64,000 nucleotides of DNA from Chlorokybus atmophyticus (Eukaryota > Plantae > Mesostigma and Chlorokybus algae), in contig RHPI01002955.1 of NCBI GenBank assembly GCA_009103225.1, positions 249,238 to 313,237 on the forward strand, in the 5' to 3' direction. This document shows, piece by piece, positions 316 through 60,799 of the stretch. The translations under genes were made by a program, and so were the position numbers. How positions within the stretch are numbered: the stretch's first letter is position 1; each line of letters begins with the position of its first letter. The notes under the pieces are model-generated. The model did not search any database and was not told the DNA's origin. It saw only the letters and a program-made list of their open reading frames with translations.

Positions 316-344
316 ACGGTTTACGAAGGTGAGAGAGGAAGTGT

Positions 345-1421: not shown

Positions 1422-1436
1422 TAGAAGCGAGAGGAG

Positions 1437-7928: not shown

Positions 7929-10900
7929 CTTGCCAAGGTTGGTAATGGAAGAATGCTATCTACCTGCCATATTGCAGTGCACGACAATGATATGGGTGTA
8001 CCTGCTGACAAAATTCTTGTTGCATGATTGTGCTAGAAAACATTTGCTGTTAAATGCGCGTGCCAGTCATCTCAAGTACCATGTGAGGTGCAAGAGTGCA
8101 AGTGCTAACAACACCAACGCGTGTGTAGTTGTGTCTTGGTGCGCTACTTGAAAGACATGCAAGTGATATATGAGGTCAACAGGGGTGCGAAGGTTCCACA
8201 ATCTATGCGGGTCACGTATAATCCTCAAGTGTTTCACCGTGTATGTAAGTTGAACTTAACACGGTTGCTTACAGCAACCGTGGCAAAGGTACCTGTCATC
8301 ATGATGATTGACATTGGCACGCCAAAGAACTTTGTAAGTGAATCTTTGGTGCGACTTCTTGGCAGACATGTCAATGCATGCAATGAGCAAGTCGCTTTAC
8401 TTGACGACTATGCTCTACCTGTGCATGAAATAGTGCGATTGTCACTGCGTATGCAAGGGTATCATGCTCAACTCCGGTTCATGGCAATTCTGGTGGAAGT
8501 GTCATGGGTTAATGTAATTGTGCCAGTGGGAGAGAGCAGTTGGCTTACGCACTGATGCTAACACCAAGTTGTGTAGCGTGAGGAAAGGAGAAAAGGCAGA
8601 GTGGTCTTGAAGGCAAATGGGTGAGCACTGATCTGTCATGGTTGCTTAATGACCATCAGACGTCTCAATGCTTCTGAGTACTATGCAGGTAAAAAGAGAA
8701 TTTAAGCGAGGAGCTACTCCACTGTTGGTGCTTGTGCGTGAAGGGCCTGTCGCCAGTAAGGGAGACAACTCTACATCTGGTACGCCGACAAATGGCACAA
8801 TTGATGCTGCAATGCATGCAGTTTGGGATGAGTATGCTAACGTATTCATGGATGAGTTGCCTACTATGCCACCTGAGAGGGAAGTGTGGCATACTATCCC
8901 TCTGGTGCAAGAAGCACAACCTTCATTTAGATGCACATCTGACTACAGGATGAGCCTTGCAAAGCATGCTGCCATGGAAGGGCAAATTAAGCAATTGCTC
9001 ACAAAGGGGTTGATCGAGCTGAGTAGCTCTTCCTTTAGTGCCTATTCACTTTGTACCAAAGAAACTTGGCAAGCTCCGCATGTGTGTGGACTACCGTGCC
9101 TTTAACAAGCTTACCATCAAGAACAGGTACTCATTACCAAGGATAGATGATCTGTTAGACCAATTGTAAGGTACGACTATATTCAATTCCTTAGATCTTG
9201 GGTTGGATTACCATCAGATTCGAATAATATCGGAAAATGCCAAACACAGCATTTAGGACACCTGTTGGCCACTTCCAGTACAAGGTGTTGCCATTTGGAT
9301 TGATCAATTAACCAGCCACCTTTCGATTGCAACAATGAACCAGGTGTTCTCAAAGCTTATTGGTAAGACAGTACTTGTGTACTTGGATGATATCCTCATG
9401 TTTAGCAAGGACGAGGCTTCACATGTCGCACATGTGCGCATGATGTTGCAAACACTGCGAGAGCACAAGTTTTATGCTGTAGTGGAGAAGTTTGAGTCTG
9501 GGAAGCATGAGTTAGCCTTTTTGGGTCACATAATCAGCAAGGATGGCGTCCATGTTAATATTAAAAATGTATGTGCAGTAAAGGATTGGCCCGTGCTTGT
9601 GAAAGTACATGAGTTGCATTCTTTCCTTAGGTTGTGCAATTACTTTTGCAAGTTCACTCTGAGGTACTCTGGTAGAGTTGCCCCTCTTACTAATCTGACC
9701 AATGAAAAGATCAGGTGTGCTTTGACACGAACACGAAGGCAACGAGATGCCTTTAAGTCAGTCAAAGAGGCTTTGATGCAAGCGCCTGTGTTAAGGTTCC
9801 CTGACTTCAGTCAGCCCTTTACTTGTGGGTGATGCATCTATAGCTGGCACATGTGCCATATTAATACAGGGTGGTCATCCTCTTGCATACCTGATTAAGA
9901 AGTTATCTGCAGCTGAGAAGAACTACACTACCACAGAGCGAGAGCATTGGGGAATGGTGCACGCGCTCACAAAGTGCTGCTACTTAAAGGGTGGAAGGCG
10001 GTTCACAGTAGTAACCGACCACAAACCACTCACTTTCTGTCAGACCCTAACAACTTTGTCATGAAGATAAGCCAGGTGGGCAGAGTTTCAGTTCCGCTTC
10101 AACTTTACTTGGGTTTACAAGCCTAAAAGAGTGAATGTGACAGATCCCCTTAGCCACTCGCCGCTGTTGTTGGCAGTAATGGCGCGGGCACGCGGGGTAT
10201 CTGCAAGTGCGAACCCTTCAAAAAGGGAGCACAACCTTAGCAATGGGAGCAACAACTAGGTCCCAAATATGGAAACAGTTTCAGTCATTGCCGACTGACA
10301 CATCTAAATATGACTTATTGCAGATTGATGTCCAACCAGGGGGGGGGGGGTATTGGTGAGCCAAGAATGCATATTAAGGGAAGGGCCAATCCCCGGTGGG
10401 GAGGACCTTAACAACCAGTCATCAAGCACAGTTATTGAAGTTGATGCACTTGATATGTTGGAGCGATCGTCTCAAGCATACTCAACAGACCTCTGGTTCC
10501 TTAGCTTATTGAGAAAAGCAGATGCGGACTTGGTGTGCCATAATGGTTTGTGGTACTACAAAGGGAAGCTAGTTGTGCCTGACATGCTTAGCCTACGACA
10601 GGACTGCATGTATGAAGCATACAATGCTGTGTATAGCGGGCATATGGGCATGAGGAAGACCGTCAAGCAATGGAGCGCTTCTATTGGTGGCCAAGCATGG
10701 CATCTGATGCAACAAAGTATGTTCGTATCTGTGACATGTGTCAGCGCAATAAAGCCTCGCGTAGTAAGCCCGTAGGTCTATTGAAGCCACTAGAGGTACC
10801 GAAGTACCAGTGGCAAAGTGTTAGTATGGATCTGATTGCTGACTTGTCGGTAACAAAGAAAAGACAAAGCGCTGTTATTGTCTTTAGCGATAGCTTGACT

Positions 10901-13329: not shown

Positions 13330-15180
13330 AAAATAACCCAGCTTTTATGGGACAAGTGCTTATAGGAGCTTGTCCACTGCTGAGTACTAGAGACTTGGGG
13401 AGTTGTGCTCCATTATCATATACATGCTGTGTTGTAGGGCACACAGTCAACGAGCCATACCCCCCGAGCTTTTGTGAAGGTTCAAGCTTTAGAGCTCAGC
13501 ATCTGACACAAGTGTGCAGGTCCGTTAGTGTGGCAATTATTGCACTAATACTCCACCACTAATACCTCAACCAAAGGAGGGCTTAAGACAGTAGCATTGC
13601 AGCCCTTTGCAAAGGGCTGCAGTGCTATCAATGGCTATAACAAGTGTTACAGTCATTACAAAGTTGTACGAGTGGGTCATCGACGGTATTGCCGCAGCGC
13701 TCACAATGTGCCGCGGGCGGGGCGTGGGTGCTTGATACGCCCGAAGCCAGCCATGCAAAGGAGGTGACTTGATGCGCAGTTCACCATGTTGTTCATCAAC
13801 CTCTTGCCGTTCTGGCCGAAGAGGTCCAACACCCCTTTGGGGTGTACCTTAAGCACTTTAGAAAAATTGCGGCCAATGGAACTGTTGCGCGTATCTTTTA
13901 TGGCCTCCATGCAATTGGGAAAGTCCCTTGCTTAGAACCGACATTGATGCTCCTTGTAGAAGCCACTGCGCACACGCTCATAGCGCAGCGTGTCGCAGTG
14001 CTGCGCAATGCGCAAGTTCATGAAGGCCTTGAGAACATTGAGCTTAAAGAGTGCTGCGAAAGATAGTGTCGTGATGTATGCAGTTGGGGTCATTGAGATT
14101 GTCCACCATACAATCCACCTTCAACTGTGCACAAAAAAGAAGCAGTGGCGGTCACTTGAGCAGCAAGGTATAAGGGCTATACTCGCGCAAAGCTGCTTGC
14201 TTTGATAGCCGGTATTCGAGGGCCACCCATGGCAGGTGGTCATCCCAGGTATTCCTCTCATACTTCAGCATGTGCTTGCGCAGTGCCTTCTTAATGGTCT
14301 GTACTGTGCGCTCGGCAAGACCATCGGCCAAAGGGTGGTCACGCGAGGTACGTCAACGATTAATATGGCACCTGTGCAAAAGGGTGTCGAACTCCCCTTT
14401 GAACTCAGTGCCTTGGTCGATGATGACCTCAGCGCAACTATTGTGCCGGCTGAAAACATGAGAGGAAGGCTTGAGACACCCCGCTGCTGCTTTTGTCGGC
14501 CAATGGCACCAGCTCCACCCACTTGGAAAAGTTCTCAATCGTTACAAAGATGTAGCGGTTGCCGCGTGTCAAGGGTGACAAGTCTCCCAAAATGTTGAGC
14601 CCCTACCAATAGAAGAGACCGAGGATAAGGGGAGGGTTCATTATGGCTCTGCGCGTGTTGAGGCTGGTGCGCACCATGTTATACTACTGGTAGTAGCTTA
14701 CGAGCTCCTGCACCTACTTGTACAATCCATGCCACCAATATTGTGCCCTCATAAAGCTGTTTGCTTTGGTGTCCGAGCTCCGTGCAAAAGGCAGCAATTA
14801 TGCCCTCGCGTGTGGCTGGTGTTGGCACCTCCTTGTCTTCACCATGGAGGCGGCGATGCAGCTCGTTATGCCCAATGATAGTGCTAAGTGCATTGGAATG
14901 ATGCGGTCCTTCTCGCGTGCACTCATGCCGGTGGGAAGCTAGCCACTGCAAAGGAAGGAGAGGGATGGCTCTTTTAGCCATAAGTCCTACCTGGTATCGG
15001 TGGGTACCACCTCTTGTCGACCTCGATGTTGATAATGCGGGTGTCCCCTACGGGTGTGTTCATGGCGGGGCCCGTTGGCTTAAGAGCAGACATCTCCCAA
15101 GCTGTTGCTGTGGCAGTGCACCACATCAGCTGCACCCAGCCTATAAGCATGAAGATCCGCGCGCGTCACTGACCACTAGC
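13330..15180 (-). pseudogene. Degenerate second copy of the integrase-PHD-PPT-LTR end of the methyltransferase-bearing Gypsy family
   Basis: KVLKVHPKGVLDLFGQNGKRLMNNMVNCA...KHPRP aligns with KVLKVHPTGVLDLLGQRGERMKDNMVNCA...QHPRP of ORF 55861-57435. The minus-strand GGGGGG...GTTGACTGTGTGC near 13440-13465 matches 57475-57500. Confidence 0.88.
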
Positions 15181-17357: not shown

Positions 17358-17444
17358 CGGCAATAATCGTGACTGGAAAGACTGCTGACAAACACTGTGT
17401 ACAAGACTGCCAGCAATGAGGCAGCCGCAGTGGTATATGAGATC

Positions 17445-20508: not shown

Positions 20509-21399
20509 TCAATCATGCCAACCGATGCGTGCTCAGCAAATTATCTTCGAGCTCTCGCCATTTGACCCACTCGGACTTTGGCGTCATTCTGTGCAAGACC
20601 TCGTAGTGACCACATTAGACATGTCGCTTAGCGCTAACCCAGCACTTTGTGGGCTTGTTTAAGGGAGCCAACAAGAACGCTTTTTTGTCCCAAAGCACGC
20701 ATAATGCTACTGACTGGATCAAGCGGCACAAGTACATGCGCGACGGCAGGCATATGAAGCATCACGCGCTGCTGCTAGCCAACTTGCAGGGGCATTTGGC
20801 ATCGCTGGTGCCTCCACCACATTTGAGACGATGCCACCTTTCGCAATCGCGATCACTCCGCAGGGGCACACAACTGCTAGTTACCAAGCGAGGGCGTTGG
20901 CATATCAGTTGATCGGGGTAAGCGCTGCTTCCTTCCTTGTTCGAGGATATGCCGGAAGACCAGCGTGATGATGCAGGGCGAGTTTACCTCACCCAACAAG
21001 GGGACACCACACATTAGGGTGGAACTAGTATGGTGGGAGAGTAACAACTCCGTATCGCGCTCGAATGACAAGCAGTTATGCTGCACGGGCCGGAGCGCAA
21101 TGCAAAAAAACAAGTGATGGGGATGCGAGGGCGCAGCGCAGCTTGAGCACGGCTAGTGACGTGGCTCATTGCAAACCACTCTACCGGACCCATGTTTGCT
21201 TGCTACGACAGAGCATAAAGCATATCACACAATCCCGGGGGACATTTTGTATGCAATGTTAATGGAGCTTCTTGTGGTTTTTAACTCATCTTATGAACTA
21301 TTTGCATGCTTTAAGGCCTCTTGCACCTACTAAGTTAAGGAAACTTAATTAACTCTCGCGTCTGCTAGCACGGTATAGTCCTCCGCTTCAAGGTGGCAA

Positions 21400-22558: not shown

Positions 22559-25105
22559 ATATGAGTTCATGAAGCGCATGACATGCGCGCCCATGAACTC
22601 AAGAACTTGTGAATGAGTTATGAGACTCTTGTGCCCCTAGTGCCCTAGGCACTTGGGGGCACAAGCCCTCATTAGAGTGAGTTGTGAGTCACAAGCTCCT
22701 TATCTAATTGCTTCCCACGTCAAGCACGGCGGCGCCATCCTTGACGTGGGTGGTGAGTGTGGTGAGAAGGTGTGGACGGAGGCGGCCCTCCACCATGGTC
22801 ACACGGTCACAAGCGAGTGCCCACGATAATGGAAAGGAGGTGGCGGCCACGGCCGCAATGGCGTTGCTAGCCGCCAATTGCTCATTGCGGCCTAAGAGTC
22901 CGCGTCGTGAGGTGGAGGAGGGAAGGATGGAGAGAGAGGAGGGAGAGGTGCGCCCCGCCGGCGGTGGGAGAGAAGAGGAGGTGAATAAGGAGGGTGGTGG
23001 TGGAGGCGAGGATGAGGAGTTCGATGAGGAGTTGGATGAGGGCTTTCGCCCAAAGCGCCCAAATCGGGCTCCAAGTCCAAATCGCTCTACCACCCCGTCC
23101 ATGATGTCCGTGGAGGACATGGCGAGGAGGCTGGAGGTGTTGGAGGCGGAGAACATTCGCTTAAAGCATGGGAAGGTGCCGGTCATCCCTTATAAGCCCG
23201 TCGCCAACGAGCCCACCCACCCCCTACTTGTGAGCATCTTTCGCCGCTATAATGGCGACTCCACTAACCCCAAAGCTCGAGTGGGAGCTATGGCCACCCG
23301 CTTCAGCGAGCCCGTGACCCCTTGGAAGGAGAACTTGAAGAAGCGGGCTCGACAACACCTTGAGGTGGCGGCTCATCCCGGCTCGGCGGCATCCTCTTTC
23401 GTCAGGGTGCCTGCGCACCTTGCCGAGGACCCCCACTTCGCCAAGGCCGAAAGTTGAAAGGTGGGCTCATTTTTTGTTGAGCACCGCCATATGCACGCAC
23501 ATCCGGCTCCGGACTTCGCCCACGCACGCTTGCACATGCGTGCATTATGGGCCTTATGAAGGCGCCAGCCCAGATAGCTACACACTCATTCAATTAGCTA
23601 CATGCGTTCCGCATCCCTCCTCCCCCCATGTCCGGAGGGGGGGGAGGGGCCCGCACTTAACACCATTATATGTTCACCTCTGCATTCACATTATAACTAC
23701 CCCACAGCAAAGGAACGAGCACAACAGGGCACAACATCTGCATTTGCATGCGCATATGCATATAATAGGTATGGGAACGGATTGTGGTGCACTTGGCGCT
23801 AGACCCAGTGGCTTTGAGCCCGTAGGAACATGCAATGTGTGTTGCTCATGTGTGCTCTGTGCGCAGCATTGGATGAGGTGTGTAAGCAATTCCACTATGT
23901 GGAAATGGCCAACAAGCATGAATGGAAGGTCGTAGACGAGCTGGTGCGCAACCCCCTCGCCATGGATGATGATGAGGCAAAGCGCCTACAGAAGGCGTTA
24001 AAGGATGTGGCTGCGGCGCAGCCCAAGCCCAAGGCAAAGCCTGCCTACCATCCCAACAAGGGGCGGGGCCAGTACCCCCCCCCGCTACTTGGGGTCCTAT
24101 GCATCGGGTGCGGGGCAGACCAGTTACCGGACCGCTCCTATGCAGTCTCAGGCAGCTTCTACTGGGGGCCAGCGGGATGTCCGCACCTGCTACAACTGTG
24201 GGAAGCCCGGGCACCTGCGTGCCTATTGCCGTGAGCCTGCAGGGCGTGGGGGCCATTAGCTCTCATAGTAGCCCCGTAGCTGTGTTATAACAGCCTAGTA
24301 GCTGTACACTTGTACGCATATATTGCATGTACTTGCTTTTGACGTCTTAAATGACCCTCGAATGGAATTACTCTGAGTTCATGATTATGACGCAATGACG
24401 CTGAAGTAGAGCCAAAGAACGTGCAATTTTAACACGGTTTGCTATGGTTGCGACTTGTTTGGCTCATAACTTTCGGTTGATACCCCGGCCAGACGAAAGT
24501 TTCTTGATATTTAGAGACTCCTCGGCTTAAGCGCCGAGAAACGCTTCCTTCTGAACGTTTCCATCGAACATCGTTTGCAAAAGTTATGACCTTGCCAAGA
24601 TGAGAGTGCATGCACTCACTTCGTGCGTATACGGGGTGCAGAAACGGCGGCAGCGTGCATAGTGGCACTTGACTACACTTTAATTGAGTCGGTGGTGGAG
24701 GACTGGATGAAACACCATGTGTTTGCACGAGCACCTAGCAATTTGGTGGTGGAAGGCTTATATATGAGGCACCGCTTATGGCGGGCCCTGCCAGCATGGC
24801 AGCAGTTGTGTGAGTCTGCCATGGTGCTCGCGTGGGTGGAGTACGGGTACAAGCTACCTTGGGCGACTGACCCACCCCCGGAATGGGCATTCACCAACCA
24901 CAAGGGTGTACATGAGTTTGCGGACTTCACTGCGGCTGCCATTGCCAACCTAGTGCATAGTGGGGCCGCACAAGAGTGTGTGACACCCTACCTCGTGGTG
25001 AGCCCTCTCAACGTGGTTGACAATGGCCGCAAGCTGCGCCTCATTATGGACTTGCGCTATGTCACCTCCTACTTGGTTGACACGCCATTGAAGTATAAGG
25101 ATGTG

Positions 25106-25494
25106 TGTTGAGAACTAGTGATGCGCCTAGTGTGTGTGTATTTGCCTCCTACATACAAGTGTGCACACTCTCAGGACAAGTGCAGCAAGCACGCCAACTA
25201 TAAAGACAATGTGCGACCCACTGTATTAAGCAGTATACAGTGTCTTATACACTATGCTACTAAGTACTAGTCAACTCTAGTCAACTCTAGTCAAAGTCAA
25301 CACTAGTGAACACTAGTCAATGGTCAAAGTCAACGGTCAAAGTCAAAGTTGACCATGGTTGACCATAACTGCCGTAACTCCCGTAACTCTCCTAACTCTC
25401 GTAACTCCCGTAACTATAAAGGTTAAGCTAATCGTACCAACTACATGTAGGCGCCACCTATACATGTACTTTCAACAAGCTATAACATTTAACA
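25106..25494 (-). mobile_element. Copia family A solo LTR inserted in the DIRS RT
   Basis: 389 bp, 5-bp TSD ATGTG; RT reading resumes as LKYKDV|RSIPDLL. Confidence 0.95.
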
Positions 25495-26589
25495 ATGTGC
25501 GCAGCATTCCAGACTTGCTGCAGCCCGAGGACTGGTTGTTCTCTACGGACTTGAAGTCCGGATACCATCATGTAGACATACACCCCACCTTCTGGGGCTA
25601 CTTGGGGTTCTCATTTGCGGGCAAAGTGTACAACTTTTGCTCCCTGCCGTTTGGGTTGAGCACATTTTGCTTTTTATTCACTAAGCTGTTGAAGCAATTG
25701 GTGCGCCGTTAGCGTGTACAATGCATCCGCGTCCTGCCATACATTGACGATATCCTGTTTGCTGCTAGCTCCAAGGCTGCGCATGCCTCCACCCTGGCCG
25801 TAGTGAAAGCAGATGCAGCATGGTGCGGTTTGGTGATCAATGCCAAGGCGCAAACGGTGTTCAGTCGAGTGATTGTATTCCTGGGCTTTGTATGGGATAC
25901 ACACGCTGGCGTGGTACGTGTTCCTGGCAAGAGATGGTTTGCTCCGAGATCTGCAGCGTGCTTTTGGTGAGAGGCGCCATGTCCCAGTAAAGTTGCAGGC
26001 CAGGATTTGTGGCAAGCTACAATCTATGTTCTTAATGTTAGGGCCTGCAGTCAAACTCATGACTTGGCATACACGCCGCTTGATTGAGACGCGCCGCTCC
26101 TGAAATTCACACATGGTGCTGCGCAAGGCGGAGATTGATAAGTTTACGTGGTTGCTAGACCACTTCGAGGAGCTGAACATGGCACCTATTTGGCCAATAG
26201 CGCAGCCGGATATAGTGCAATTTGTGGATGCTAGCGGCACCGATGGGGGACTAGTGCGCCATGGCACAGCTACCCCCGTGGCGAAAGGCACACTCACACC
26301 GGCTGAGTGCTTGACTTCATCCACATATTTATTGCGAGCTACTCGGACTTGAGCGTGCCCTACTCACTGTGGAGGAGGAGCTACATGGACGCACGGTGCT
26401 CTGCTATGGCGATGCCCGCAATGTGTAGTACATTATGCGTCAAGGGGGCAGTGAGGCCGAGCACTTGCAGCAAGGGGCATGCCGTATTTTCTTACATTGC
26501 TACCGGCATTGCATCCTCTTGCATGTGGAGTGGTTACCACGTGAGCTCAATGAGGAGGCGGACGCGCTTTTCAAAGCACTGAATTGGAA

Positions 26590-27040
26590 CGGTTGGACCT
26601 TGCAAACCCCATGGGTCAGCTTGCTCGCCCGCAAGTGGGGCGCCTTTGATGTAGACCGCTTCGCCACGGATGCCAACATTGTGTGTGTGGCCTTCAACTC
26701 GGTGTTGCCATGTCCGGGCTCATGCGGCAATGCCTTTCACTCTGACTGGAGTGGTTGCAACAACCGGTGCCATCCCCCACCACACCATGTTGGCACTGTC
26801 CTGCACCATGCCCGCGAAGGCAAGGCTCACATGTGCCTCATTGTGCCCGAGTGGACAACCCAAACTTGGTGGCCCGTGCTCTGCCCCGGTGGGGTGTGGG
26901 CACCATTTGTTACACATGTTGTGAGCATACCCAGAGGCCCAGCCTGCTTGTGGCCTAGCCCTCAAGCCACGCAACTGCAAGGGGGCTTGCCCAATAGTCG
27001 CATGTGGGCATTGCGGATTGACTTGTGTCCTGGCCATTGA
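26590..27040 (+). CDS. DIRS-type DNA N6-adenine methyltransferase-like domain (degenerate)
   Basis: WGAFDVDRFATDAN...AFHSDWSG...HPPP...LIVPEWTTQTWWPVL, the usual D-x-FA / (N)PP / P-W-x-W pattern after DIRS RNase H. The catalytic NPPF appears as HPPP. Confidence 0.8.
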
Positions 27041-48643: not shown

Positions 48644-49272
48644 TGCTAAAGGTACTTTTATTGGGCGCCCTAGCTAAACTTCTACGATTATCTTCACCTT
48701 GAGAGTTACGGTCAGTCAATGTTATTGCAGTTACAGTCCACTATAGTCAACTTTGACTTTGACCTTTGATCATGACTTTGACTATGACCGTTGACTAGCG
48801 TTGACCAATGTTTACTAGCACTTGCCAGTGTACTATGTAAGATAATGTATGTTGTGCAATACAGTAAGATCCACTCTGCTTTATTGTCAGCGCCACACTT
48901 GTGCTTGTCATTATTGCTACTGGGCAATCTCAATAGGTTATGAGCCCACACTAGCGCTAGCATAGCAAGTACAAGTTGGTGTAGCTTGAGAAGGCGCCGT
49001 CTTTATTGCAAGCTAGCATAGGAAGCATGGCAAACAGCTATAACAAGGATTACATCGAGCCTTTGAACTTCGACAACTATGGGACATGGAGCATCCGGAT
49101 GCAGATGGTACTCATGCATAAAGATCTATGGTCGGTGGTGGATCCCACAGCGCGCCCTCTCGACTTGGAAGACGCACCAACAAAGAAAAGTTCCATTCAA
49201 GCACTTGCGTTGATAGGATTGAATGTGGTACAGCATCATTTAGCGCTTGTTGCACATTGCAAGTCTGCTAAA
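48644..49272 (+). mobile_element. Copia family C 5' LTR (48644-48935), PBS and truncated gag
   Basis: PBS GGTTATGAGCCCAC; EPLNFDNYGTWSIRMQM; similarity ends abruptly at ~49272. Confidence 0.87.
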
Positions 49273-49337
49273 ACTCCAGACTGGAAGGGCTGCTGAAGGA
49301 CACTGACTACAAGATTGTCAGTGAGGAGGCTGCTGCA

Positions 49338-50738
49338 GTGATATACGTCAATGAGTTGGATGCTGCTCTGAGCGAGTCGACACGCCTGACTCTGAACTAC
49401 AGCAGGCCCCTTGGCTACACCCTCAAAGAAGCCTTCGAGACTGCACAAGCCATCCACAAGCGCTTGGTGTATGAGAAGGCAGTGCTGGACACCAACCGCA
49501 GCGCCGTACGGCCTGTAGTCAGCACGACAACTGAGCCTCCTCGCCGCGACCGTGGCCGGGACGCTCCACCAGCACGCGACAAAGGGAAACGGTCAGCTCA
49601 TGCTGCACTTGCTGCCCCTGTGCTGTGTCATCGCTGTGGACGGCATGGGCACTACCAAAAGGAGTGCACCGAAGAATACTCAACTTTGGTTTGCGACCAC
49701 TGTCACAAGACTGGTCATTTAGAGTCAGTCTGCTGGCTCAAGTTCCCAGAGTTGAGGCCCGCCAACAGCTACAACCACAACTACCTCGGTGGCTACAACA
49801 GCAACAACACTGGGGGCCACACTGGCAACAACTTCAGTGGCTACAACAGCAACAACGCTGGGGGCCACACTGGCAACCACTTCAGTGGCTACAATAGCAA
49901 CAACACTGGAGCCCACAACAGCAACAACGCTGGTGGCAGTAACAACAACAGCAACGCCAGTGTTCGCAAGGAAGAGCAAGGCTACAGGGGGAAGAACAGA
50001 CCTCCTCAGCGTAGGGGACCAGAAACACGTCCGCGCGCTGCTGCTGTTGCCGCCAAGGCTTCAGCCAACCCACCAGCTGATGACCATATGGCAGCCCTCA
50101 TGGCGCGTATGGCGCGTTTGGAGGAAGACAAGGAGCAGGACTACCGCGCCTGCTACGCTGCCCGATGGGCGCTGATGGCTGCAAAACGCGAGAGAGCCAG
50201 GAACACTCCGTCCCGCGTGCAACCATCACGACGAGCACGAGGGGAAGCTGCAACAACATCAGCAGGCACCTCCTCCGAAGCCACCAGTGGTGCTGTCTCC
50301 GCAGCAACAGCCACACCGGCTACAACGTCGACTCCACCAACGTCAACAGCACCCACTCCAGTTGCACCACACCCTGGTACACCGATGGGCACCGTGACGC
50401 CGACGCTGGTGAGTACACTGGCAGCAGCCGCCATCTCTACCGAATCTGCACCAGTGGGCGGTGCACTTCCCACTGCAGCAGTGCCTCTGTCCGTAGGCGT
50501 TGAGACAACTCTTGCACCACCGACTGATACCGTCGCAACTGCCACAATGGCCATCGTCGAGCCCGCTGTCTCTGCAGCGACGCGCGCAGCCACTCTGCCC
50601 GCTCTCGACGTCACTCAGGCTGTCCCAACTGGTCAGCAAGCTGAACGAGCATGGGAAACCATCCTGCGCGGAGCAGACCCCACTACCATCGCCTTCGGTC
50701 GGGGGGGGGGAGCGCACCACGCGTGTCGCCCGCGATGA
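49338..50738 (+). CDS. gag: Gag-like protein with two zinc knuckles and low-complexity tail (5'-truncated)
   Basis: CHRCGRHGHYQKEC and CDHCHKTGHLESVC; Asn/Gly repeats; Ala/Thr/Pro-rich tail; ends just after a G10 run at 50701-50710. Confidence 0.8.
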   Translation: MIYVNELDAALSESTRLTLNYSRPLGYTLKEAFETAQAIHKRLVYEKAVLDTNRSAVRPVVSTTTEPPRRDRGRDAPPARDKGKRSAHAALAAPVLCHRCGRHGHYQKECTEEYSTLVCDHCHKTGHLESVCWLKFPELRPANSYNHNYLGGYNSNNTGGHTGNNFSGYNSNNAGGHTGNHFSGYNSNNTGAHNSNNAGGSNNNSNASVRKEEQGYRGKNRPPQRRGPETRPRAAAVAAKASANPPADDHMAALMARMARLEEDKEQDYRACYAARWALMAAKRERARNTPSRVQPSRRARGEAATTSAGTSSEATSGAVSAATATPATTSTPPTSTAPTPVAPHPGTPMGTVTPTLVSTLAAAAISTESAPVGGALPTAAVPLSVGVETTLAPPTDTVATATMAIVEPAVSAATRAATLPALDVTQAVPTGQQAERAWETILRGADPTTIAFGRGGGAHHACRPR

Positions 50739-52400
50739 TCGCGTCTTCCCGCTACCAGAGGTTCACACCCTTCCAGCACTCACTCAACACCAGTTGGAAG
50801 ATGAGATCCTTGCTGGCACTGCACCTCCGATGCGTGAGAGGGTGTTTTTGATCAGCTACAGCCCACCTGTAGTGTTGGAGTTGGCCCTGCAACTGTTCTG
50901 GGCGTTGCACAACAACATGCAGACCGCCCCGCGCCAGCCTGCACGCAGGCCAACCACCACCTTTGAACCCAGCCCGTTGGACACGTATCGGGACCGCCGA
51001 GACGCCGTCCAGCAGCGCATCGCCGACGTAGCCGACCTGCCTTTGGGCACTGATGAAGCACTCGGACCTCCTACAACCGCTCGTCTTCATCAGCGCTACC
51101 ACGCACTGGAACAAGCATATCATTGGCGACAGGATCAAGCTGCCGCCATTGCTGCACGTGAACAAGCTCTTGAAGCTACACGTGCACCAATACCTCAGTC
51201 ACCAACTGCTGGTCCATCCTCTAGCACCACTCCGCTTTTCGGCGAGACCAACTCTGACCAAGCGAGGGCGTTGGCTCAACAAACCAGGGGGGTGATCGCC
51301 CCGTTGCTGCCTGCGCTGGTGGAGGATCTACCTGAGGACCAAAGGGAGCCAGGGAGGGGCTACCTTACACCACAAGGGTGTACACAAAGAGATGGAGCAG
51401 GACTGGTTGGAGAGCAACAACTACGCACTGCTCTGTTGCGACAAGCAACCATGCTGCATCGGCAAGAAGGCATCGGACTCCGGCAGATGCTTGGGATGCG
51501 AGACAATGGCAACGCGGCACGCGCACGGTTAGTGACGTGGCTGGTCACCAACCATCCCGCAGTCCCGTTGTTCGCTTTTGGCGCCAGAATAGCGTGGGTG
51601 GACGCATTCCTTCGCTCCATACGGCAAGCCTATGATGAAGTGGCTTCCGCCGCCACTGACACTCTGGAGGGAGCTCTGGAGGTTATACTGAGTTTGCCAG
51701 GAGTGGAGGCAGGACGTCAGCGCAGGCGCATCGCCGCTGCTTACGAGCAGCATGTTCAACAGCCAGAGACCCGCCTCACTTTACGCACACGAGCAATAAC
51801 AGTGCTGGAAGTGGGAGTGGTCAACGGCAGATGGGATGCTTACATGGCAGGGATCCTCAGGGTGCCTACCGTCACTCACGACATGAGGGCGCGGCTCCTA
51901 CGCGCAGTGTACGTGCAGCCCATGCCTCAGAACCATCGCTATATAGACGTGGACAACAATGCGACGGCGACATGGGAAGGTACACTAGTCAGAGAGGCAG
52001 CCCATGCTGCGCGATGGACCTATGCAGAGGAGCAGGCTGCACGAGAGGCAGTCCCGCAAACACCAGGTCCTCCAGGGTTCCCGCCACAGCCACTGGCCAC
52101 TCCTCCTGGCATGACAACAGCTGCACAGAGGGTCAACCCTCCTGCACCTCCACTTGGACAGGTTGCAGCAGCACCTCCAGTGCCTAGGCCACCACGCGTG
52201 TACCAGCAACCGCGACAAGGACGGTTTGGACAAAGCCGAGGACAAGGAGGCCCACAAGATCCATCAGGCAGAGGAGCCCTGGCTGCCCTACGGTCAGGCC
52301 CCGCAGATGAGAGTAAAGCAACAGTCTCTCCACGCAAGAGGTTCCATCGCTGCAAGAGGCTGCGCATCAACGCCAATGCAGCCATGATCGCCAACCAAGG
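50711..52400 (+). CDS. Uncharacterised ~550-aa region between Gag and protease
   Basis: Open frame (ORF 50500-52461) that runs into the protease motif VMLDTRA; no motif recognised. Confidence 0.6.
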
Positions 52401-52770
52401 CAAGCACGTGACCGTCAATGGGCGGGCACCCAAATGCGTGATGCTGGACACTAGAGCATAGCCTGTCATCATTGGGCGCTATCTCGCACGAGATCTCGGC
52501 ATCACCAGCGCTGAGCTGCTTCCCTGTCCCTACCAGCTGGACACCGCAACCGGCAACCGCGACAAGGTGCTCGGCCTTATCAAGCAGGCTGTGAGCATTC
52601 GCCTCACAGGACTAAACCCTTCCCACAGCACCGAGATTATACAACGGTGTGTGGTCCAATGCCGGGTCCTTTGACCTACTGCTGGGACAGGATTGCAACT
52701 TCCCTGTCGGCATGGGGATGGACTGCTGGACTGAGCAGGCATGGTTTCGACCGCATTGGGATGAGGACGA
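52400..52770 (+). pseudogene. Aspartic protease, disrupted
   Basis: VMLDTRA*PVIIG (DTG to DTR, plus a stop) followed, after a frameshift, by SFDLLLGQD. Confidence 0.8.
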
Positions 52771-53176
52771 TGGAGAGGAGCAGGGATTCCTACCTCTCGA
52801 ACTGGTGGCCAAGGACCGCTCGCAACGAAGAGCGGCGGCAGCAGCCACCTACAGTCTTACAAAAAGCTCACGTGTGCCGCGTGCCCGGACGCAGCCGATG
52901 ACAACTGCAACGAGCTCGAGCCCGAGCCTAAACGCTGGAGAGGACTCTTCTACACCGTACGATGAGTCTCAGGAAACCGTCACCAAAGAAGTGGCCTTTC
53001 AGGAGCCAACCGAGCGTCGCTGGAGCGCACAAGTAGCAGCACACATGCTGCTGACCAGGCCTCAGCTCACTGCACACTTCCCTGTCTACAAAGACCAGGC
53101 TACAGTGCAGGAGCAGTACCACATAGCTACGGGAGTTGTGGAGTTCCACATGTTCCGCCGACAATAAGGCATCACC

Positions 53177-55630
53177 GTGCTGAAGCTGTTCGGAGGCATA
53201 GGCAGTGGGCTTGCGGCTGTCCTCAACACAGGAAGAACAGTCACCAAGTACCTCTACTGTGACCCTGACCCTCATGCACAGGAGGCTCTGAGCCATCATT
53301 TACAACAGCTGCACCAGCGCTACCCGCAGCAGCTACCACTGTCGGCACTGCAAGGGAGCCAGAAAGCTCTACCGCAGGACATCCGCTGGATTACCAAGGA
53401 TCACCTGCAGGCAGTCGGCAACGTTGACCTGCTGATAGAAGGATGGGAGTGTCAAGGGCACTCCAGGGCAGGCAGAGGCCAAGGGCTCTCTGATCCTCGC
53501 TCACAGCTGTTCTGGGAGCTAATGAGAGTCATCAAACTCCTACAGACCAGTCAGATCGCTAGGCCTTTGGGGTACATCATCGAGAATGTGCACGCCGAGG
53601 ATGACAAGCGGCATCACGTCGCTAAGGCCTATTGCCAAGTATGCTCCTTGCTGGGGCATCCTCTCAAGATCAACGCCGCGCGTCATGGATCTCGCGCACA
53701 CCGCGTCCGTGCCAAGTGGACCAACCTGGCCATTGTGGAAGACCTGTTTCTGGCAGAGTACCTATACAGCAATCGGCCACGAAATCTCGTCGTCGATGAC
53801 ATCCTGGACCCTGGACGCACAGCGCAACCAGTCACACGCCTTGACCACCACCACTTCTACCAGTGCAACCAGCCTGGTCAGCCGCGCCGCGCCCTACCCA
53901 CGCTTGTATCCTATCCAGGCTCCTACGCGTTCCGCAATGGAGGCGACGGCATGGTGTTGGACTCCAACACTGGACAGCTGAACGAACCCAACGCTCGTGA
54001 GCGCGAGCGTGCTATGGGATTCTTTCCAGGCAGCATCACAGGCTCCACGCTGACAACCAGTCAACAATGTCAGTTGTTAGGACGCGCCATGGATCAGAAC
54101 AGCATGGTGTGGTACTTGGAAATGTGCTTTGCTCTCCAGGACCGCCATGTGTCCTTCCAGGAGCTCGAACACCTGGCTGGGGGGTGGATTGCTCGCTTTT
54201 CAGAGACCAAAGCAGCATACACCGCCCTCGAGACCGCCCACATGGAGGAGCAGGCAGCAGTCACTGTGGAAGACATTCCAGTGGTCGCCAACGCTACCTC
54301 GTGGTCCCACGCCATTGGACCGCTGGCCACAGGCCAGACTCAAGAGCAACTCGAGGCTCTCCTCAACAAGTGGAGGAGCCAATTCAGCTTCAGTGTGAAG
54401 GAGCTGGGCATCTGCTCAGCATACCAGATGGACATTGAACTAGTGGACACCGAACCGGTGTTCAGAAGACAGTACCGCCTCTCCAAGCTAGAAGAAGACT
54501 TGGTGGAACAGAGGTGCAAGGCGCTGCTAGATGCAGGCCTGATCGAGGAGTCCACATCGGACTTTGCGGCCGCGACCGTCATGCCCCTGAAGAAAGATTC
54601 AGCAGGCAACTGGACAGACCGGCGCATGTGTGGCGACTATCGCCCCCTCAACAACAAGACCAAGCAGGACAGGTATCCAATGCCTACCGCAGAAGGCATC
54701 TTTGACGATGTAGGAGACTGCACGGTCTTTAGTATCCTGGATATGCGCCAAGGGTACAACCAGATCGCCATCAAGGAGGAGGACAAGCACAAGACTTCCT
54801 TCTGGGGAAACCGGCAGCTGTACCAGTGGAAGGTCATGCCCTTCGGACTGAAGAACGCTCCGGCCAAGTTCCAGCGCGTCATGGATAAAGCCCTCAAGGG
54901 GTTGGACTTCGCACGCTGCTACATCGATGACATCCTCATCTTCAGTCACGGCAATGAGGAGCATCTCCAGCACATCGAAGAGGTGCTACAGAGGCTGAAG
55001 GAAGTCGGGATGACGGTACACCCTGACAAGTGCACCTTCTTCACCCACAAGGTACCCTACCTAGGACACACGATTGTGCCCCATGGTGTGTACGTACAGC
55101 AGGCCAAAGTGGAGGCACTGGTGGCTATCCCTGCCCCCACAGACCTCACGCGGCTGCGGGCCTTCCTCGGCCTTGCCAACTATTACCGACGGTTTGTCAA
55201 AGACTTTGCCAAGATCGCAAGGCCTCTCAACGAACTACTGAAGAACGACACCGAGTTCGTGTGGAAGGAGGCACAACAGGAGGCCTTTCAGGAGCTGAAG
55301 CTCCGCCTCACCACAGCTCCCATTCTGCAACGCCCTGACTACACCAGGTCGTTCATCCTGCACACAGACTGGAGCAAGCTCGGCATGGGGGCCGTGCTCG
55401 TACAGCACGACAACAACAAGAAGGAGCGCGTAGTGTCGTACGCCAGCCGCAGCAACAACAGTGCTGAGGCCAACTACAGCAGTTACGAAGGAGAGTGTCT
55501 CGCCGCAGTGTGGGCCATCTCCTTCTTCCGACCCTTCCTGTTTGGACGGCAGTTCCAACTGGTCACTGACCATCAACCCCTCAAGTGGCTAATGAACAAC
55601 CAGCACTTGACAGGAAAGTTAGCACGATGA
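53177..55630 (+). CDS. Pol segment: DNMT3-like C5 methyltransferase fused to RT and RNase H
   Basis: VLKLFGGIGSG (motif I), DLLIEGWECQG (IV), IENV (VI), AHRVR (VIII), ERERAMGF...LLGRAMD (IX-X), then RMCGDYRPLN, YIDDILIF, LHTDWS, EGECLAAVWA in one uninterrupted 817-codon frame. Confidence 0.93.
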   Translation: MLKLFGGIGSGLAAVLNTGRTVTKYLYCDPDPHAQEALSHHLQQLHQRYPQQLPLSALQGSQKALPQDIRWITKDHLQAVGNVDLLIEGWECQGHSRAGRGQGLSDPRSQLFWELMRVIKLLQTSQIARPLGYIIENVHAEDDKRHHVAKAYCQVCSLLGHPLKINAARHGSRAHRVRAKWTNLAIVEDLFLAEYLYSNRPRNLVVDDILDPGRTAQPVTRLDHHHFYQCNQPGQPRRALPTLVSYPGSYAFRNGGDGMVLDSNTGQLNEPNARERERAMGFFPGSITGSTLTTSQQCQLLGRAMDQNSMVWYLEMCFALQDRHVSFQELEHLAGGWIARFSETKAAYTALETAHMEEQAAVTVEDIPVVANATSWSHAIGPLATGQTQEQLEALLNKWRSQFSFSVKELGICSAYQMDIELVDTEPVFRRQYRLSKLEEDLVEQRCKALLDAGLIEESTSDFAAATVMPLKKDSAGNWTDRRMCGDYRPLNNKTKQDRYPMPTAEGIFDDVGDCTVFSILDMRQGYNQIAIKEEDKHKTSFWGNRQLYQWKVMPFGLKNAPAKFQRVMDKALKGLDFARCYIDDILIFSHGNEEHLQHIEEVLQRLKEVGMTVHPDKCTFFTHKVPYLGHTIVPHGVYVQQAKVEALVAIPAPTDLTRLRAFLGLANYYRRFVKDFAKIARPLNELLKNDTEFVWKEAQQEAFQELKLRLTTAPILQRPDYTRSFILHTDWSKLGMGAVLVQHDNNKKERVVSYASRSNNSAEANYSSYEGECLAAVWAISFFRPFLFGRQFQLVTDHQPLKWLMNNQHLTGKLAR

Positions 55631-55860
55631 GCGCTGCTGCTCCAGGAGTACGACTTCGAGGTGGAACACCGCGCAGGCCTGGCCAACCAGGATGCGGATG
55701 GCCTCAGCCGTAACCCCCACCTCAGCACCAACGACGCTACAGGCGCCCGACATGAGTTGGGTCCTACAGCTGCACCTTCAGGTGTGGCCACCATGTTCGC
55801 TGTCGCTGCGCTACGCTCGGACGCAGGACTCAGACCTCTGAGGCAGTAGCAGACAGGGAC

Positions 55861-57435
55861 ATGCCCACTCTCGAGCCCGCCATCACCACCAAAGATCCTT
55901 TATCAGAAGAAGCAATCGCTGCCGACCCTGAGGTGGATGATGAGGAGCTGGCACCCACCGACACACGACAAGACATCTGGCTGGACGAACCATCCCTCGC
56001 ACTGCTTCAGACTGGACAACTTCCAGCAGGCATGAGCGCACGCGAGAAGGACCGCGTCCGACAACGCACTCAGCGTTACCGCTGGGCCAACGACAGGCTG
56101 TATCGACGGATACAAGATGCAGATCAGGAGGTCCCCACACCAGCTGCACGTAAAGGCATCATCTCCTCCCTTCACACCGAGCTCGGGCACTTCGGTGTCA
56201 AGCGCACGGTCAGCCTGGTCAGGACCCAGTACTGGTGGTATGGGGTGCACAGACAGGTGCGGGAGTTCGTCAGCAACTGTCAGCAGTGTGACATGGTTTG
56301 CGCCTGCCTCAACACGCGCAATGCCACCTTGCATCCCCTTCCCATTTCCGGGTTGTTCTACCGCTGGGGACTGGACATCCTCGGAGACCTAGCGCCCTCA
56401 GCGCGAGGCAACCGCTACATCCTCGTCATGATCGAGCACTTCTCCAAGTGGGTGGAGCTGGTGCCCCTGCCCGACAAGAGCAGTGAGGGAGTAGCCCAGG
56501 CTTTCCTCTCCCATGTACTCGGACGCTTCGGCAGCTGCGCTGAAGTCATCACCGACCAGGGTACGGAGTTCAGAGGAGCTTTCGACAAGCTTATCGACAG
56601 ATGCTTCATCGACCACCGTCGCACCTCACGCAACCACCCGCCGGCCGACGGCCTCGCCGAGCGTACCGTGCAGACCATCAAGAAGGCACTGCGCAAGTAC
56701 GTCCTTGCCTACGAGAAGAATACCTGGGATGATCACCTCCCATGGGTAGCAATGGGCTACCGGCTGTCCAAGCAGGCAGCCCTGCGAGAGTACAGCCCAT
56801 ACTATCTACTGTTCGGAAGGCAGCCATTGCTCCCTTTCCGCGCACAGCAGGAGGTCGACAGAGTGGTGGACAATCTCGACAACCCCGACGAGATGTTGTA
56901 TGATCTGACAGTGCGCAGTGCGCTGTTCGAACACACAGTCCCCATGGCCTTCAACAACCTGCGCATCGCGCAGCACCGCGACACGCTGCGTTATGAGCGT
57001 GTGCGCAGTGGTTTCTACAAGGAGCGGGAGCGCCGCTTCGAGTCAGGAGACTTCGTCTACCGTATGGCGTCTACACGCGACACCCTCGATACCTCCGTCG
57101 GGCGTGCTGTCTACAAAGTATTGAAGGTGCACCCCACAGGGGTACTGGACCTGTTGGGACAACGAGGTGAGCGCATGAAGGACAACATGGTCAACTGTGC
57201 GCCCTGTCATCTCCCCTACATTGCTGGCTTCACCAAGATCCAGCACCCGCGTCCGCTGCGCAGCACCCGATGCGAGAAGTGTGGCAGCGCCGACGACGAC
57301 CCATTGATGATGTTATGCGATGGCTGTAATCAAGGCATGCACTGCTACTGCCTTGACCCTCCACTGGACGCAGTACCCTTGTGGGAGTACTGGTGCGATG
57401 ACTGCCGCATCAACGGTCCCCCACACAGTCGGTAG
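55861..57435 (+). CDS. Integrase with C-terminal PHD finger
   Basis: HTELGH...CQQC (HHCC); WGLDILG, TDQGTEF, AERTV (DDE); CEKC...CDGC...HCYC...YWCDDC (C4HC3 PHD) at ~57271-57405. Confidence 0.93.
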   Translation: MPTLEPAITTKDPLSEEAIAADPEVDDEELAPTDTRQDIWLDEPSLALLQTGQLPAGMSAREKDRVRQRTQRYRWANDRLYRRIQDADQEVPTPAARKGIISSLHTELGHFGVKRTVSLVRTQYWWYGVHRQVREFVSNCQQCDMVCACLNTRNATLHPLPISGLFYRWGLDILGDLAPSARGNRYILVMIEHFSKWVELVPLPDKSSEGVAQAFLSHVLGRFGSCAEVITDQGTEFRGAFDKLIDRCFIDHRRTSRNHPPADGLAERTVQTIKKALRKYVLAYEKNTWDDHLPWVAMGYRLSKQAALREYSPYYLLFGRQPLLPFRAQQEVDRVVDNLDNPDEMLYDLTVRSALFEHTVPMAFNNLRIAQHRDTLRYERVRSGFYKERERRFESGDFVYRMASTRDTLDTSVGRAVYKVLKVHPTGVLDLLGQRGERMKDNMVNCAPCHLPYIAGFTKIQHPRPLRSTRCEKCGSADDDPLMMLCDGCNQGMHCYCLDPPLDAVPLWEYWCDDCRINGPPHSR

Positions 57436-58647
57436 GAACTGAGTTCTGGAGCAGAGGGCTACCCCAGAATCTCAGGGGGGGTGGCTTGTTGACTGTGTGC
57501 ACTACGACACAGTCTGTACACAAAGGTGGCGAGCGGCATCGGCTCGTCCACTGCACTAAACACCGCGTAGGCTCATCTTCAAGCCTATGCCCACGATTGG
57601 GGGGTTGTCTTTTGCTTGCATGACTCCAATGCAGTGCACGGCACTAGCATGCGTGCAGCACTAGCACTCCTCCGCAGCCTGTCCGAGACAAGGTTGCCCT
57701 CGACCATGGCAGGCACGACACCCTCTCATCCCATGTGGGGTTGTGATGTCCATGGCAGCTTTGCACATGTGTGTGAGGTGTGCTTGAGTGTGTGAGTGTG
57801 TGGGAGCTGAGTAGAGAGGTTGGTGTCATCCTCTCCTTCCTCCTTGGTGCGGTGCTGTGGCTTCCTCTGCAAGGTACTGCACCAGTGACGCTGGTAGGGC
57901 TGTGGCTTCCAGTAGTAAGTCCTTGTGCATAAGTTCGCCAAGCCGCCCAGCAAGTAAGTGAGTGGTATCGTTACAACTGTAAAGCAAGCAGCCAATGTTT
58001 GAGAGCAACTTGATATAATGACACCACCATTGAAAAACACACATATCTTGCATGTTGCACCCTATTGTAATATATGTTTATATACTATGAAAGACCTTAC
58101 AACATGCATATTATGCATAATGTGCATTGAACCAAGCCCCAAAACGGTGATACATTCAATGCTGCTCAATCTCGCATGATTATCAAATAAACAAGTGTGC
58201 TCTGCGTGTAGTGAGCAAGGCATCATATCGTCTTCGTCACTCAACATTTGTTAGTAAACCCTTCCAATAGGTACAAACGACCGGTACCACCATCGTAGCA
58301 GCAAGCACGCAAAAAATAGCACGTGCATATGTGTGTGTTTAAGCAGCTCAGCAAAACATTGCAGCAACTAGTAGTGTTCAACTAAGAAACTATCGAGCGT
58401 TGGTGGTAGCCAACGCGAATGACTCTAACTATGTACATCAGAAAGTATGATCTAATAATGTACACCGTATACAATCGCTCACCTTAAGAGCGTGCCTAAA
58501 CATCAACATATGTCACAGCACATGGATTGTACTATGCAAGTCCTGTTCAAAAATTTCAACCTTCACTCTTGAATGAGGTTTTATCACAGCACTCCCTTGT
58601 TGGAAGCTCAAGGGATGCCGTGCCAAATGAATGCTTCCTCATCCTTA

Positions 58648-58902: not shown

Positions 58903-60799
58903 GATGTCAGTGCACGCACCAAAACGATGCAAGGGAGGGAGATAATGTGCAGGCCAAGCAGGGACGCCGCGACGATGATAGCCTTCTTGGGCTCATGCAA
59001 CTGTCAAACAACAACTTCACTGTCAGGTATACAACACGGCGGATGAGTTGGTGCATGCATTTCTGCGTGTGTGTGTGTGTCTGCACCTGTGCGTTGTATG
59101 CAACCCTCACATGCATGCTGCTTACCGATGACCAGCATCTGAAGAGCCCTCCAGCTGCAGTAAACAGCCCAACCTCCCACACGATAAAGAAGACGCAGAT
59201 CAATGCGAGTACGCCACCAGCTTTAGAACAGCTGCATTGAGGGCATGTTTAGTTCAGAGAGGGTTTGGGTTTGCCCAAAAACTGCAAGACGGGTGTGCCG
59301 TTACACACATACGCACACGCACACGCACACGCACACGCACACGCACACGCACACACACACACACACACCATTCTATGGAAAGAAGATTCATCCAAGGAGA
59401 ATTGTAGTTGTTCACGCCTGCCGTGGTGGCGTTGTTGTTGACATTGAAGTTGATGGCTCTTCCGGCAAACAGCATTACATCGGCCGTGCGGATGTTGGCA
59501 ACTATCTGTCCACATATCTCGCACTTGTGTGTTCTGCGCTTGGCGAGCCAGCGCAGCGCGCACACGTAGTGCGCAACCGCCATGCCGCCACGACAACTGC
59601 ACCTGCGCACGTGCATGTGCATGTGCCACAATGAAAACGTGCTCCTGCGCGTGTAGATATGTGCGCGTATATGTGCCCTCGCAAACGAAGACGAGACACA
59701 TGTGTGCACCTGCGCCTTCGAGTGCACACTCCAATGCTGCGTGTGTGTGCGTACATATGCTGCAAGCAGGACACACAAACAAGCGGAACAGATACAGATA
59801 CAGATATAGATACGGATACGGATACGGATACAGATACACTCACCAGTGGGCATATGCATACACAGACACATACACGCACACAAACTACTTACCTCAGCTG
59901 CGTAGGGCTTGTAGCGCACTCGCCCGCTGGCTTGGCGCAGTGCGGCCCGCACGCCATGAAGTGACGCAGGTCGAGACCCTCCTCCTGTGTGCGTGTGCTC
60001 GTGTGAATGTGCGTGTACACATGACCTTGGCCACAACAACAGCAACAGCAACAACAACAACAACAACAACAACAGCACTTCACGCCACCTGCAGGGACTG
60101 TATTGCTGCGTGCGGCATCAGCGAGGCAGGTTCGCACCCTTCGAGGTCCACATTTAGGCATATGCGGCAAGGCAGGGGATAGGCCTGCACGTTGTATTGT
60201 GTTGTGTTGTCGTATCGTAAAGCTCAACAACGCACGCTCTGATCTATGTACCTTGCAGCTAAACAAGTTGCAATCAGCATGTACCACGTGTATTGAAATT
60301 TGCAACTAGACCTTAGACGGGGCTGCATGTAGCAAGATTGAGTTTGCTTTGCCATTTGGTGTCAACCATGATTGACAGTCGGGTGGTAACAACAGTCCCC
60401 AACTTGAGACGCTTATAACCATAAGACGACACAAAACGGCTGATGCAGCCACATGACAGTGGAGGCATATTTAGCAAGGCATACTATGTGCAATGCCCTG
60501 TCTACCTGCAAATGTTGTGCCTGCGGGCGTATGGACGTCTGTGTGTGAGTGTGTGTGCGATCATGCAGCTGTGCATTTGCAGCCCCCACCGTTTTGTGCT
60601 TGCTCTGCTCAGAGTCTTCCGCCGCCTTGCTGTCCTCCGCCTCCTTGCCGCTGGAACTGGCGGTGGCGGCGGCGGCGGCGGCGCCCTGGCCAGCATAGTT
60701 GTTGGGATTGCTGGCGTCATTGTCGCCGTCGCTGTTGTCGCCTGCAGGCGCTTGGGGGCGGACGGCGCTGCTGAGGGGGTCGTCCTGCGTTGTCAGCAT
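58648..60799 (-). CDS. Host gene: membrane-associated RING-CH (RINGv/MARCH-like) E3 ubiquitin ligase, multi-exon
   Basis: Phase-compatible GT-AG exons 60590-60799, 60089-60184, 59893-59984, 59369-59602, 59126-59231, 58920-59000, 58755-58784, 58648-58680 give CRIC...CSCRGGMAVAHYVCALRW...CEIC followed by two hydrophobic segments. First and last exons are less certain. Confidence 0.8.
58856..60075. repeat. Intronic microsatellites
   Basis: (GA)n 58856-58898, (CACACG)n/(CA)n ~59309-59368, (CAGATA/CGGATA)n ~59787-59836, (CAA)n ~60031-60075. Confidence 0.95.

Follow-up and report, generated by a model that had tools for sequence, protein, structure and literature searches.

We analysed a stretch of 64,000 nucleotides of the alga Chlorokybus atmophyticus (contig RHPI01002955.1, positions 249,238 to 313,237; hereafter the window), in which a decayed Ty3/Gypsy retrotransposon carries a DNMT3-like cytosine methyltransferase domain inside its Pol region. 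The element spans 49273 to ~57975 and runs from a gag with a zinc knuckle, through an unknown region, protease (PR), methyltransferase (DNMT), reverse transcriptase (RT), RNase H (RH) and an integrase (IN) ending in a PHD finger, to a polypurine tract (PPT) and a 3' repeat region (Table 1). The PR-RT-RH-IN order, with a DDE integrase following RNase H, places it among Ty3/Gypsy elements, and a single frame (53168-55630), open over 820 codons, holds the DNMT domain, RT and part of RNase H.

Table 1. Features of the methyltransferase-bearing element in the window
Feature	Position	Strand	Evidence or remark
Gag region with zinc knuckle	49273..50738	+	zf-CCHC E 0.0011
654-codon frame between gag and protease	50497..52461	+	Pfam: no match; stop TAG 52459-52461
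Aspartic protease, broken by stop and frameshift near 52655, then linker to TAA 53165-53167	52399..53167	+	three-frame translation; similarity to PF13650-bearing P0003 and P0049
DNMT3-like C5 cytosine methyltransferase domain	53168..54145	+	motifs I-X unpermuted; Cys, Glu-Asn-Val and Arg-x-Arg kept; private changes at residues 6, 91, 169, 290 and 300
Reverse transcriptase, YIDD 54920-54931	54410..55123	+	PF00078 (RVT_1) E 1.4e-34
RNase H, cut by TGA 55628-55630	55262..55720	+	PF17919, PF17917; E 4.8e-34
Integrase (H2C2 finger, core) and C-terminal PHD finger 57271-57405	55756..57435	+	PF17921 E 2e-15; PF00665 E 1.6e-8; PF00628 E 4.5e-7
Polypurine tract	57474..57481	+	sequence; position same in relatives L126 and L089
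3' terminal repeat region (TG...CA)	57487..57975	+	single copy in window

A DNMT3-like domain in the Pol frame of a decayed element

A first-pass annotation of the window had proposed that a DNMT3-like C5 methyltransferase domain shares one Pol frame with RT and RNase H, and this was borne out by a Pfam match, by six motifs in order and by a DNMT3A/B fold. The match to PF00145 (DNA_methylase), the profile that the annotation had named, reached an E value of 2.6e-10 over residues 70-152, its 40.7 bits lying well above the cut-off of 22. Motif I lies at 53189-53203, motif IV at 53441-53464 (GWECQGHS, Cys codon 53450), motif VI (ENV) at 53582-53590, motif VIII (AHRVR) at 53696-53710, motif IX (ERERAMG) at 53999-54019 and motif X (LLGRAMD) at 54074-54094; a DRM-type permutation, with motifs VI-X before I-V, was looked for in the domain, where the motifs instead run from I to X. 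The Pro-Cys dipeptide usual in motif IV is not present in the window domain, which has Glu-Cys in its place. At the sequence level, its nearest relatives of solved structure are DNMT3C, DNMT3A and DNMT3B, and a family profile built from 64 members scored 93 bits against DNMT3A, 83 against DNMT3B/C, 56 against DRM, 40 against M.HhaI and 22 against DNMT2. An AlphaFold model of the domain (predicted local distance difference test score, pLDDT, 96.4) aligned over its residues 1-325 with DNMT3A/B at Z 29.0 and a root-mean-square deviation of 2.7, with 271-272 residues aligned, compared with Z 25.5 for M.HhaI; a Foldseek comparison of the model with DNMT3A/B gave an E value of 5e-20. Since its nearest solved relatives by both profile and fold are DNMT3 enzymes, we assign the domain to this kin and regard its identity as a DNMT3-like cytosine methyltransferase inside a Gypsy Pol as virtually certain. 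Compared with the host enzymes DNMT3A/3B/3C and plant DRM2, it has the same fold and catalytic motifs, but is only ~25% identical, lacks the PWWP, ADD and UBA domains, is not permuted as DRM is, carries GW[EP]C at motif IV and has a longer target-recognition region (~325 versus ~277 residues).

The window copy itself is broken by stops at 52459, 53165 and 55628 and by frameshifts in the gag region, in the protease and before the integrase, the integrase-PHD part being shifted relative to RT-RH near 55818. Its 5' end is gone, with a Copia gag remnant (48985-49272, PF14223) adjoining at 49273. Because of the three stops, the frameshifts and the absent 5' end, this copy cannot make the polyprotein and is almost certainly dead, so that the annotation's wording of an "uncertain" activity for it was too mild. 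Its proposed connection of the DNMT frame, past the TAA at 53165-53167, to the protease held for the second half of the protease, which the same frame reaches, but not for the first half, which lies in another frame with the TAG at 52459. Similarly, the frame does continue into both RT and RNase H, but it ends at the TGA at 55628 inside RNase H, and the integrase-PHD part follows only after a frameshift. Upstream, the 3' end of the 654-codon frame contains the start of the protease; this frame (50497-52461, + strand) is partly conserved in a second fragment in the window and possibly represents an extra domain of the family.

Contigs from runs X1-X3, which represent two samples, one of them perhaps the source of the window, stood in for other genomic copies. 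Single contigs span the protease-DNMT junction (52769-53266) and the DNMT-RT linker (53999-54574). The X1-X3 contigs carry the domain without the window's stops at 52459 and 53165 and without its frameshifts, and they differ from it at domain residues 6 and 91; an X1 contig across motif IV shows three differences from the window, none of them in the Glu-Cys codons. Depth per bin over the DNMT part (43-79 in X1, 83-96 in X2) was similar to that over the remaining element, and such depth, though no copy number, fits a repeated family. The domain is a feature of the element family, not the one-off capture that the annotation had named as the alternative to its reading, and none of the outcomes that it had listed as counting against that reading was seen. 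Four contigs of run X2 extend upstream of 49273 with sequence unlike the window.

Catalytic residues, relatives and domain orders

Residue conservation was counted in 141 near-full-length homologues that had been selected as similar to the window. Both the catalytic Cys and the motif VI Glu, whose retention in relatives bore on the first-pass reading, were present in 141/141, the two Arg of motif VIII in 140/141 and 138/141, and the motif I Gly in 140/141. Preceding the catalytic Cys we found Glu in 72/141 and Pro in 59/141, with both types in both of the domain orders described below and at least 9 switches between Glu and Pro on the DNMT tree. Glu-Cys, which together with the KLFGG of motif I had been read as a sign of doubtful activity, is thus a family trait and not a mark of decay, because 72 of the homologues carry it. 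For KLFGG the doubt was well placed, as its Lys is private to the window (0/141): Lys6, Glu91, Asn169 and Ile290 of the window domain occur in none of the 141 homologues and Gln300 in 1, and these window-specific residues look, on alignment, like decay. Active DNMT5 has Ser439 and no Pro before its catalytic Cys (bioRxiv 10.1101/2021.10.01.462825), and since this enzyme works without that Pro, Glu-Cys is compatible with activity.

Ratios of nonsynonymous to synonymous substitution rates (dN/dS) were computed for related loci instead of Chlorokybus copies. The pair L081/L083, which is free of stops, gave 0.12 for DNMT and 0.04 for RT; across 19 pairs drawn from 14 loci, with dS between 1 and 2.5, the DNMT median was 0.20, and close, mostly decayed pairs gave 0.50 for DNMT and 0.62 for RT. 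Judged from sequence conservation, intact copies are probably catalytically active.

The family is widespread. Among 1.84 billion representatives, 241 clusters matched the domain at E values up to 1e-30, and 114 of the 177 cluster representatives examined also carry PR, RT, RH or IN, with the protease counts being underestimates because the first third of the protease query was out of frame. The stop-free, 2,350-residue polyproteins P0001 and P0003 read PR-DNMT-RT-RH-IN(-PHD). Two domain orders emerged, order A (PR-DNMT-RT-RH-IN) and order B (RT-RH-DNMT-IN). Of the 177 representatives, 24 have order A (DNMT after the protease or before RT), 69 have order B (DNMT after RT or RNase H), 21 have the DNMT directly before the integrase, and 63 show the DNMT alone; the metagenome loci of at least 4 kb (n = 44) comprised 34 with DNMT followed by RT, 2 with RT-RH before DNMT, and 8 that were truncated or deleted. 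Where a host is named, order A is found in three Closterium proteins and the Chlorokybus window, and order B in Hariotina, Tetradesmus and Haematococcus, with a Cymbomonas protein lacking RT grouping with B. Derivatives with protease, DNMT and integrase parts and without RT and RNase H were also seen (L103 9290-11554; protein P0011).

In trees built without host DNMT3, without DNMT-less relatives and without Klebsormidium sequences, the split between the two orders was weak for RT (support 83) and strong for DNMT (98). In the RT tree, which had a single outgroup, order A was rooted as a grade. A DNMT tree with an outgroup of 10 phage methyltransferases (12 A rows and 20 of 48 B rows, with the long-branch P0180 left out) resolved A (97/92) and B (96/81) as sister clades joined at 100/100. 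These sister clades match the streptophyte/chlorophyte split and suggest one old capture with a later move of the domain; on trees of this sampling, a transfer of the module, or two separate captures from related host genes, may also account for them. The presence of relatives in both halves of the green algae suggests an origin much older than the published one. We tentatively propose, as a joint picture whose chance we put a little below even, a single capture of DNMT3 by a PHD-integrase Gypsy element before the chlorophyte/streptophyte split, which left two surviving sister lineages: PR-DNMT-RT-RH-IN-PHD in streptophytes (Chlorokybus, Closterium and probably Klebsormidium) and RT-RH-DNMT-IN-PHD in chlorophytes (Hariotina, Tetradesmus, Haematococcus and Cymbomonas). 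About half of the members would have a Glu-Cys loop, and the element enzyme may be the sole DNMT3-type de novo methyltransferase in those chlorophytes that are reported to lack a host DNMT3; a 12-genome survey, according to a review (PMC9861306), found DNMT3/DRM missing from its chlorophytes.

Our scans turned up no close donor among viruses or prokaryotes. The best of 80 retained viral loci were only ~27-35% identical over the first 143-216 residues and annotated phages 28-29%, and a viral scan with RT-RH gave no match. A scan of 185,579 prokaryotic species genomes yielded 1 locus, a 9 kb contig bearing a complete PR-DNMT-RT-RH-IN-PHD element, which we read as contamination. Family elements also appear in records labelled cyanobacterial or in related bins (L161 1584-6596 and P0055), most likely again as eukaryotic contamination.

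The element has the tested defining features of the Gypsy-DNMT3 elements and extends this known kind to a new genus of hosts. It adds a further case, as the first-pass annotation had supposed, to the kind published for a charophyte, KnitGypsy-Dnmt3 of Klebsormidium nitens (de Mendoza et al. 2018, PMC5890265). Both are long terminal repeat (LTR) Gypsy elements whose Pol frame includes an intronless, unpermuted DNMT3-type domain, and both have multiple copies and purifying selection. DIRS-like A-coding-B-A-B repeats, described for KnitGypsy-Dnmt3, are seen here in full in the relative L126 and in part in L142. Chlorokybus being a streptophyte alga, its host belongs to the same broad group, but represents an earlier branch, and the window copy is dead. 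The comparison draws on the features described in that paper, and among the homologues from our protein searches none was labelled Klebsormidium. There, the capture is assigned to the lineage of K. nitens, whereas the homologues found here include Closterium and chlorophytes. SymbioDIRS-Dnmt3 of Symbiodiniaceae likewise has DNMT3 in Pol and two domain orders, but it is a tyrosine-recombinase element, in contrast to the DDE integrase and PHD finger here, and derives from a separate capture according to PMC5890265. EpiLTRs and DAM-LTRs (bioRxiv 10.64898/2026.05.21.726589) are also green-algal LTR elements with DNA methyltransferases; their cytosine enzyme, however, is described as sister to DNMT4 and sits at the 3' end of Pol with Dam and a chromodomain, for neither of which the window element gave a Pfam match. 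Gypsy-7a_cRei and other PHD-finger Gypsy elements of Chlamydomonas (PMC9940879) share a Gypsy Gag-Pol with a PHD finger in a green alga, but the legend describing Gypsy-7a_cRei gives no methyltransferase domain. Gypsy-DNMT3 elements are named for streptophytes in PMC12344493 and only for streptophytes in the 2026 preprint (bioRxiv 10.64898/2026.05.21.726589). The literature searched, mostly without subscription papers, held no report of Gypsy-DNMT3 in Chlorokybus or chlorophytes, although the species table of PMC12344493 may list chlorophyte copies.

Proposed role of the domain

We somewhat favour the reading that, in intact copies of the family to which this decayed Chlorokybus element belongs, the DNMT3-like domain between protease and RT methylates the element's own new DNA. 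The Pol of Ty3/Gypsy elements is taken up into the virus-like particle, and the protease cleaves it. As Pol is packed and processed there, the methyltransferase would be near the new complementary DNA (cDNA), beside RT and integrase, at the time when the double-stranded cDNA appears. It could then methylate unmethylated cytosines de novo, most likely in CG if its DNMT3 kinship is a guide, and the new copy would enter the genome with a host-like mark in place; chromatin at the target site would be read by the PHD finger of the integrase. In yeast, the SymbioDIRS-Dnmt3 domains carried out de novo methylation of CG, and in K. nitens methylation of this type is found on transposons and also on the bodies of active genes (PMC5890265). 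Whether the element's own cDNA is the substrate for which the domain was selected appears to us evenly balanced.

Several observations weigh against self-methylation of the cDNA. KnitGypsy-Dnmt3, the nearest tested enzyme, gave no methylation in yeast, a result that its authors call inconclusive (PMC5890265), and no tested precedent for Glu before the catalytic Cys was found in the literature searched. The ratio of observed to expected CpG was 0.63-0.85 in the element; among its neighbours that lack a DNMT, a chromovirus reached 0.92-0.96 and Copia and DIRS pieces 0.53. Of 23 C-to-T-type differences selected among the 39 differences listed, 6 fell in CG, compared with a background of 21%. Furthermore, the DNMT domain is under weaker constraint than RT, and the conserved catalytic residues would imply activity on some substrate, not on which.

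An active domain might instead serve restraint or the marking of its neighbourhood, by methylating integrated copies or their flanks and so damping transposition or shaping chromatin. A slowing-down role has been raised, and KnitGypsy-Dnmt3 copies bear silencing CHG/CHH marks (PMC5890265); in addition, a PHD-tipped integrase ties the complex to chromatin, and order B puts the DNMT beside the integrase. We nevertheless consider this unlikely, as self-restraint over very long times requires host-level selection. In Ty3/Gypsy elements, moreover, few molecules of a Pol domain are produced and they do not leave the particle, and this scarcity and confinement favour a substrate in cis. Somewhat less probable still is a weak or dead enzyme, at least in the Glu-Cys lineages, that is retained as a module which binds DNA or lends structure to the integration complex. 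The frequency of Glu-Cys (72/141) and its repeated changes on the tree, the negative yeast assay of the Klebsormidium domain (PMC5890265) and the lack of a CpG signature in the window element would all agree with such a module, yet a binding module needs no nucleophile, and the Cys and the motif VI Glu are invariant among homologues at a mean identity of 36-44%.

The proposal that the domain methylates element RNA or an RNA-DNA intermediate, for which there is a parallel in the RNA methylation proposed for SymbioLINE-Dnmt (PMC5890265), would account for the negative DNA assay. It sits poorly with a domain that is DNMT3-like in sequence and fold and far from DNMT2 (93 versus 22 bits), and we hold it to be very improbable. 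Finally, the copy is embedded among other broken elements with its 5' end fused to a Copia gag, and a second, older relative in the window has no DNMT, though only its integrase end remains, which could point to a one-off capture of a host gene piece or to an assembly chimera. The single open frame, the bridging contigs in two samples, and the same order in many unrelated contigs and in the stop-free P0001 and P0003 leave this with a negligible probability, and we regard it as ruled out.

As a dead copy of a published kind, the window locus adds to what was known mainly through the reach of the family and the family-wide picture. A Chlorokybus member together with a chlorophyte sister clade of the other domain order would, if true, make Gypsy-DNMT3 an ancient trait of green plants. 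The family supplies many stop-free natural domains of both the Pro-Cys and the Glu-Cys type in culturable algae, and with these at hand the question left in 2018, whether the Gypsy enzyme is active and on what, is directly testable. The elements also raise the number of DNMT3 proteins counted in algal proteomes and turn up as contaminants in genome bins of prokaryotes.

Element ends and surroundings

No LTR pair was found within the 64-kb window. Relatives L126 and L089 have terminal repeats, and L126 shows the full A-coding-B-A-B arrangement (A 1676-2017, coding region, PPT, B 10238-10350, A 10350-10691, B 10693-10805), with B-A-B seen in L142. In the window, read depth roughly doubles over the first 230 bases past the PPT, and 57487-57720 probably corresponds to the B unit in such a split repeat. 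One X2 contig departs from the window at 57720, and its letters, together with the last 8 B-like bases of the window (57713-57720), complete the B-A junction motif of L089 (L089 14599-14615). This offers a post hoc hint that the B-A junction is conserved between distant hosts. The L089 motif is not intact in the window and occurs exactly in 1 of 160 loci.

Downstream of the element, at a distance of 1.5 kb, lies a host RING-variant gene (59413-60799, - strand) with three paralogues in the Chlorokybus proteome. A search with one exon returned 4 hits, all from Chlorokybus, and three exons were 95-100% identical to one predicted Chlorokybus protein. The first-pass description of a "chlorophyte-like genome" does not hold up against these flanking exons, Chlorokybus being a streptophyte.

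Other retroelements fill much of the window. Older fragments of a related element, with no DNMT or RT left, occur at 13421-15016 (-), 17371-17437 (+) and 20519-21200 (+) and include an integrase-PHD part with a PPT end (~70% DNA identity), a gag piece and the post-gag unknown region (35-56% protein identity). A decayed DIRS-like element at 24002-27037 (+), with a zinc knuckle and RT pieces, has a weak match to a Dam adenine methyltransferase (PF05869 E 0.0021, below cut-off) and on this weak match would be the second methyltransferase-bearing retroelement of the window. At 333-3707 (+) lies a chromovirus whose gag and pol frames are open and which has a chromodomain; no integrase core match was found in it, apparently owing to an internal deletion. 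The region ~17600-49270 is densely occupied by Copia gag-bearing repeats in both orientations, many of them 90-97% alike.

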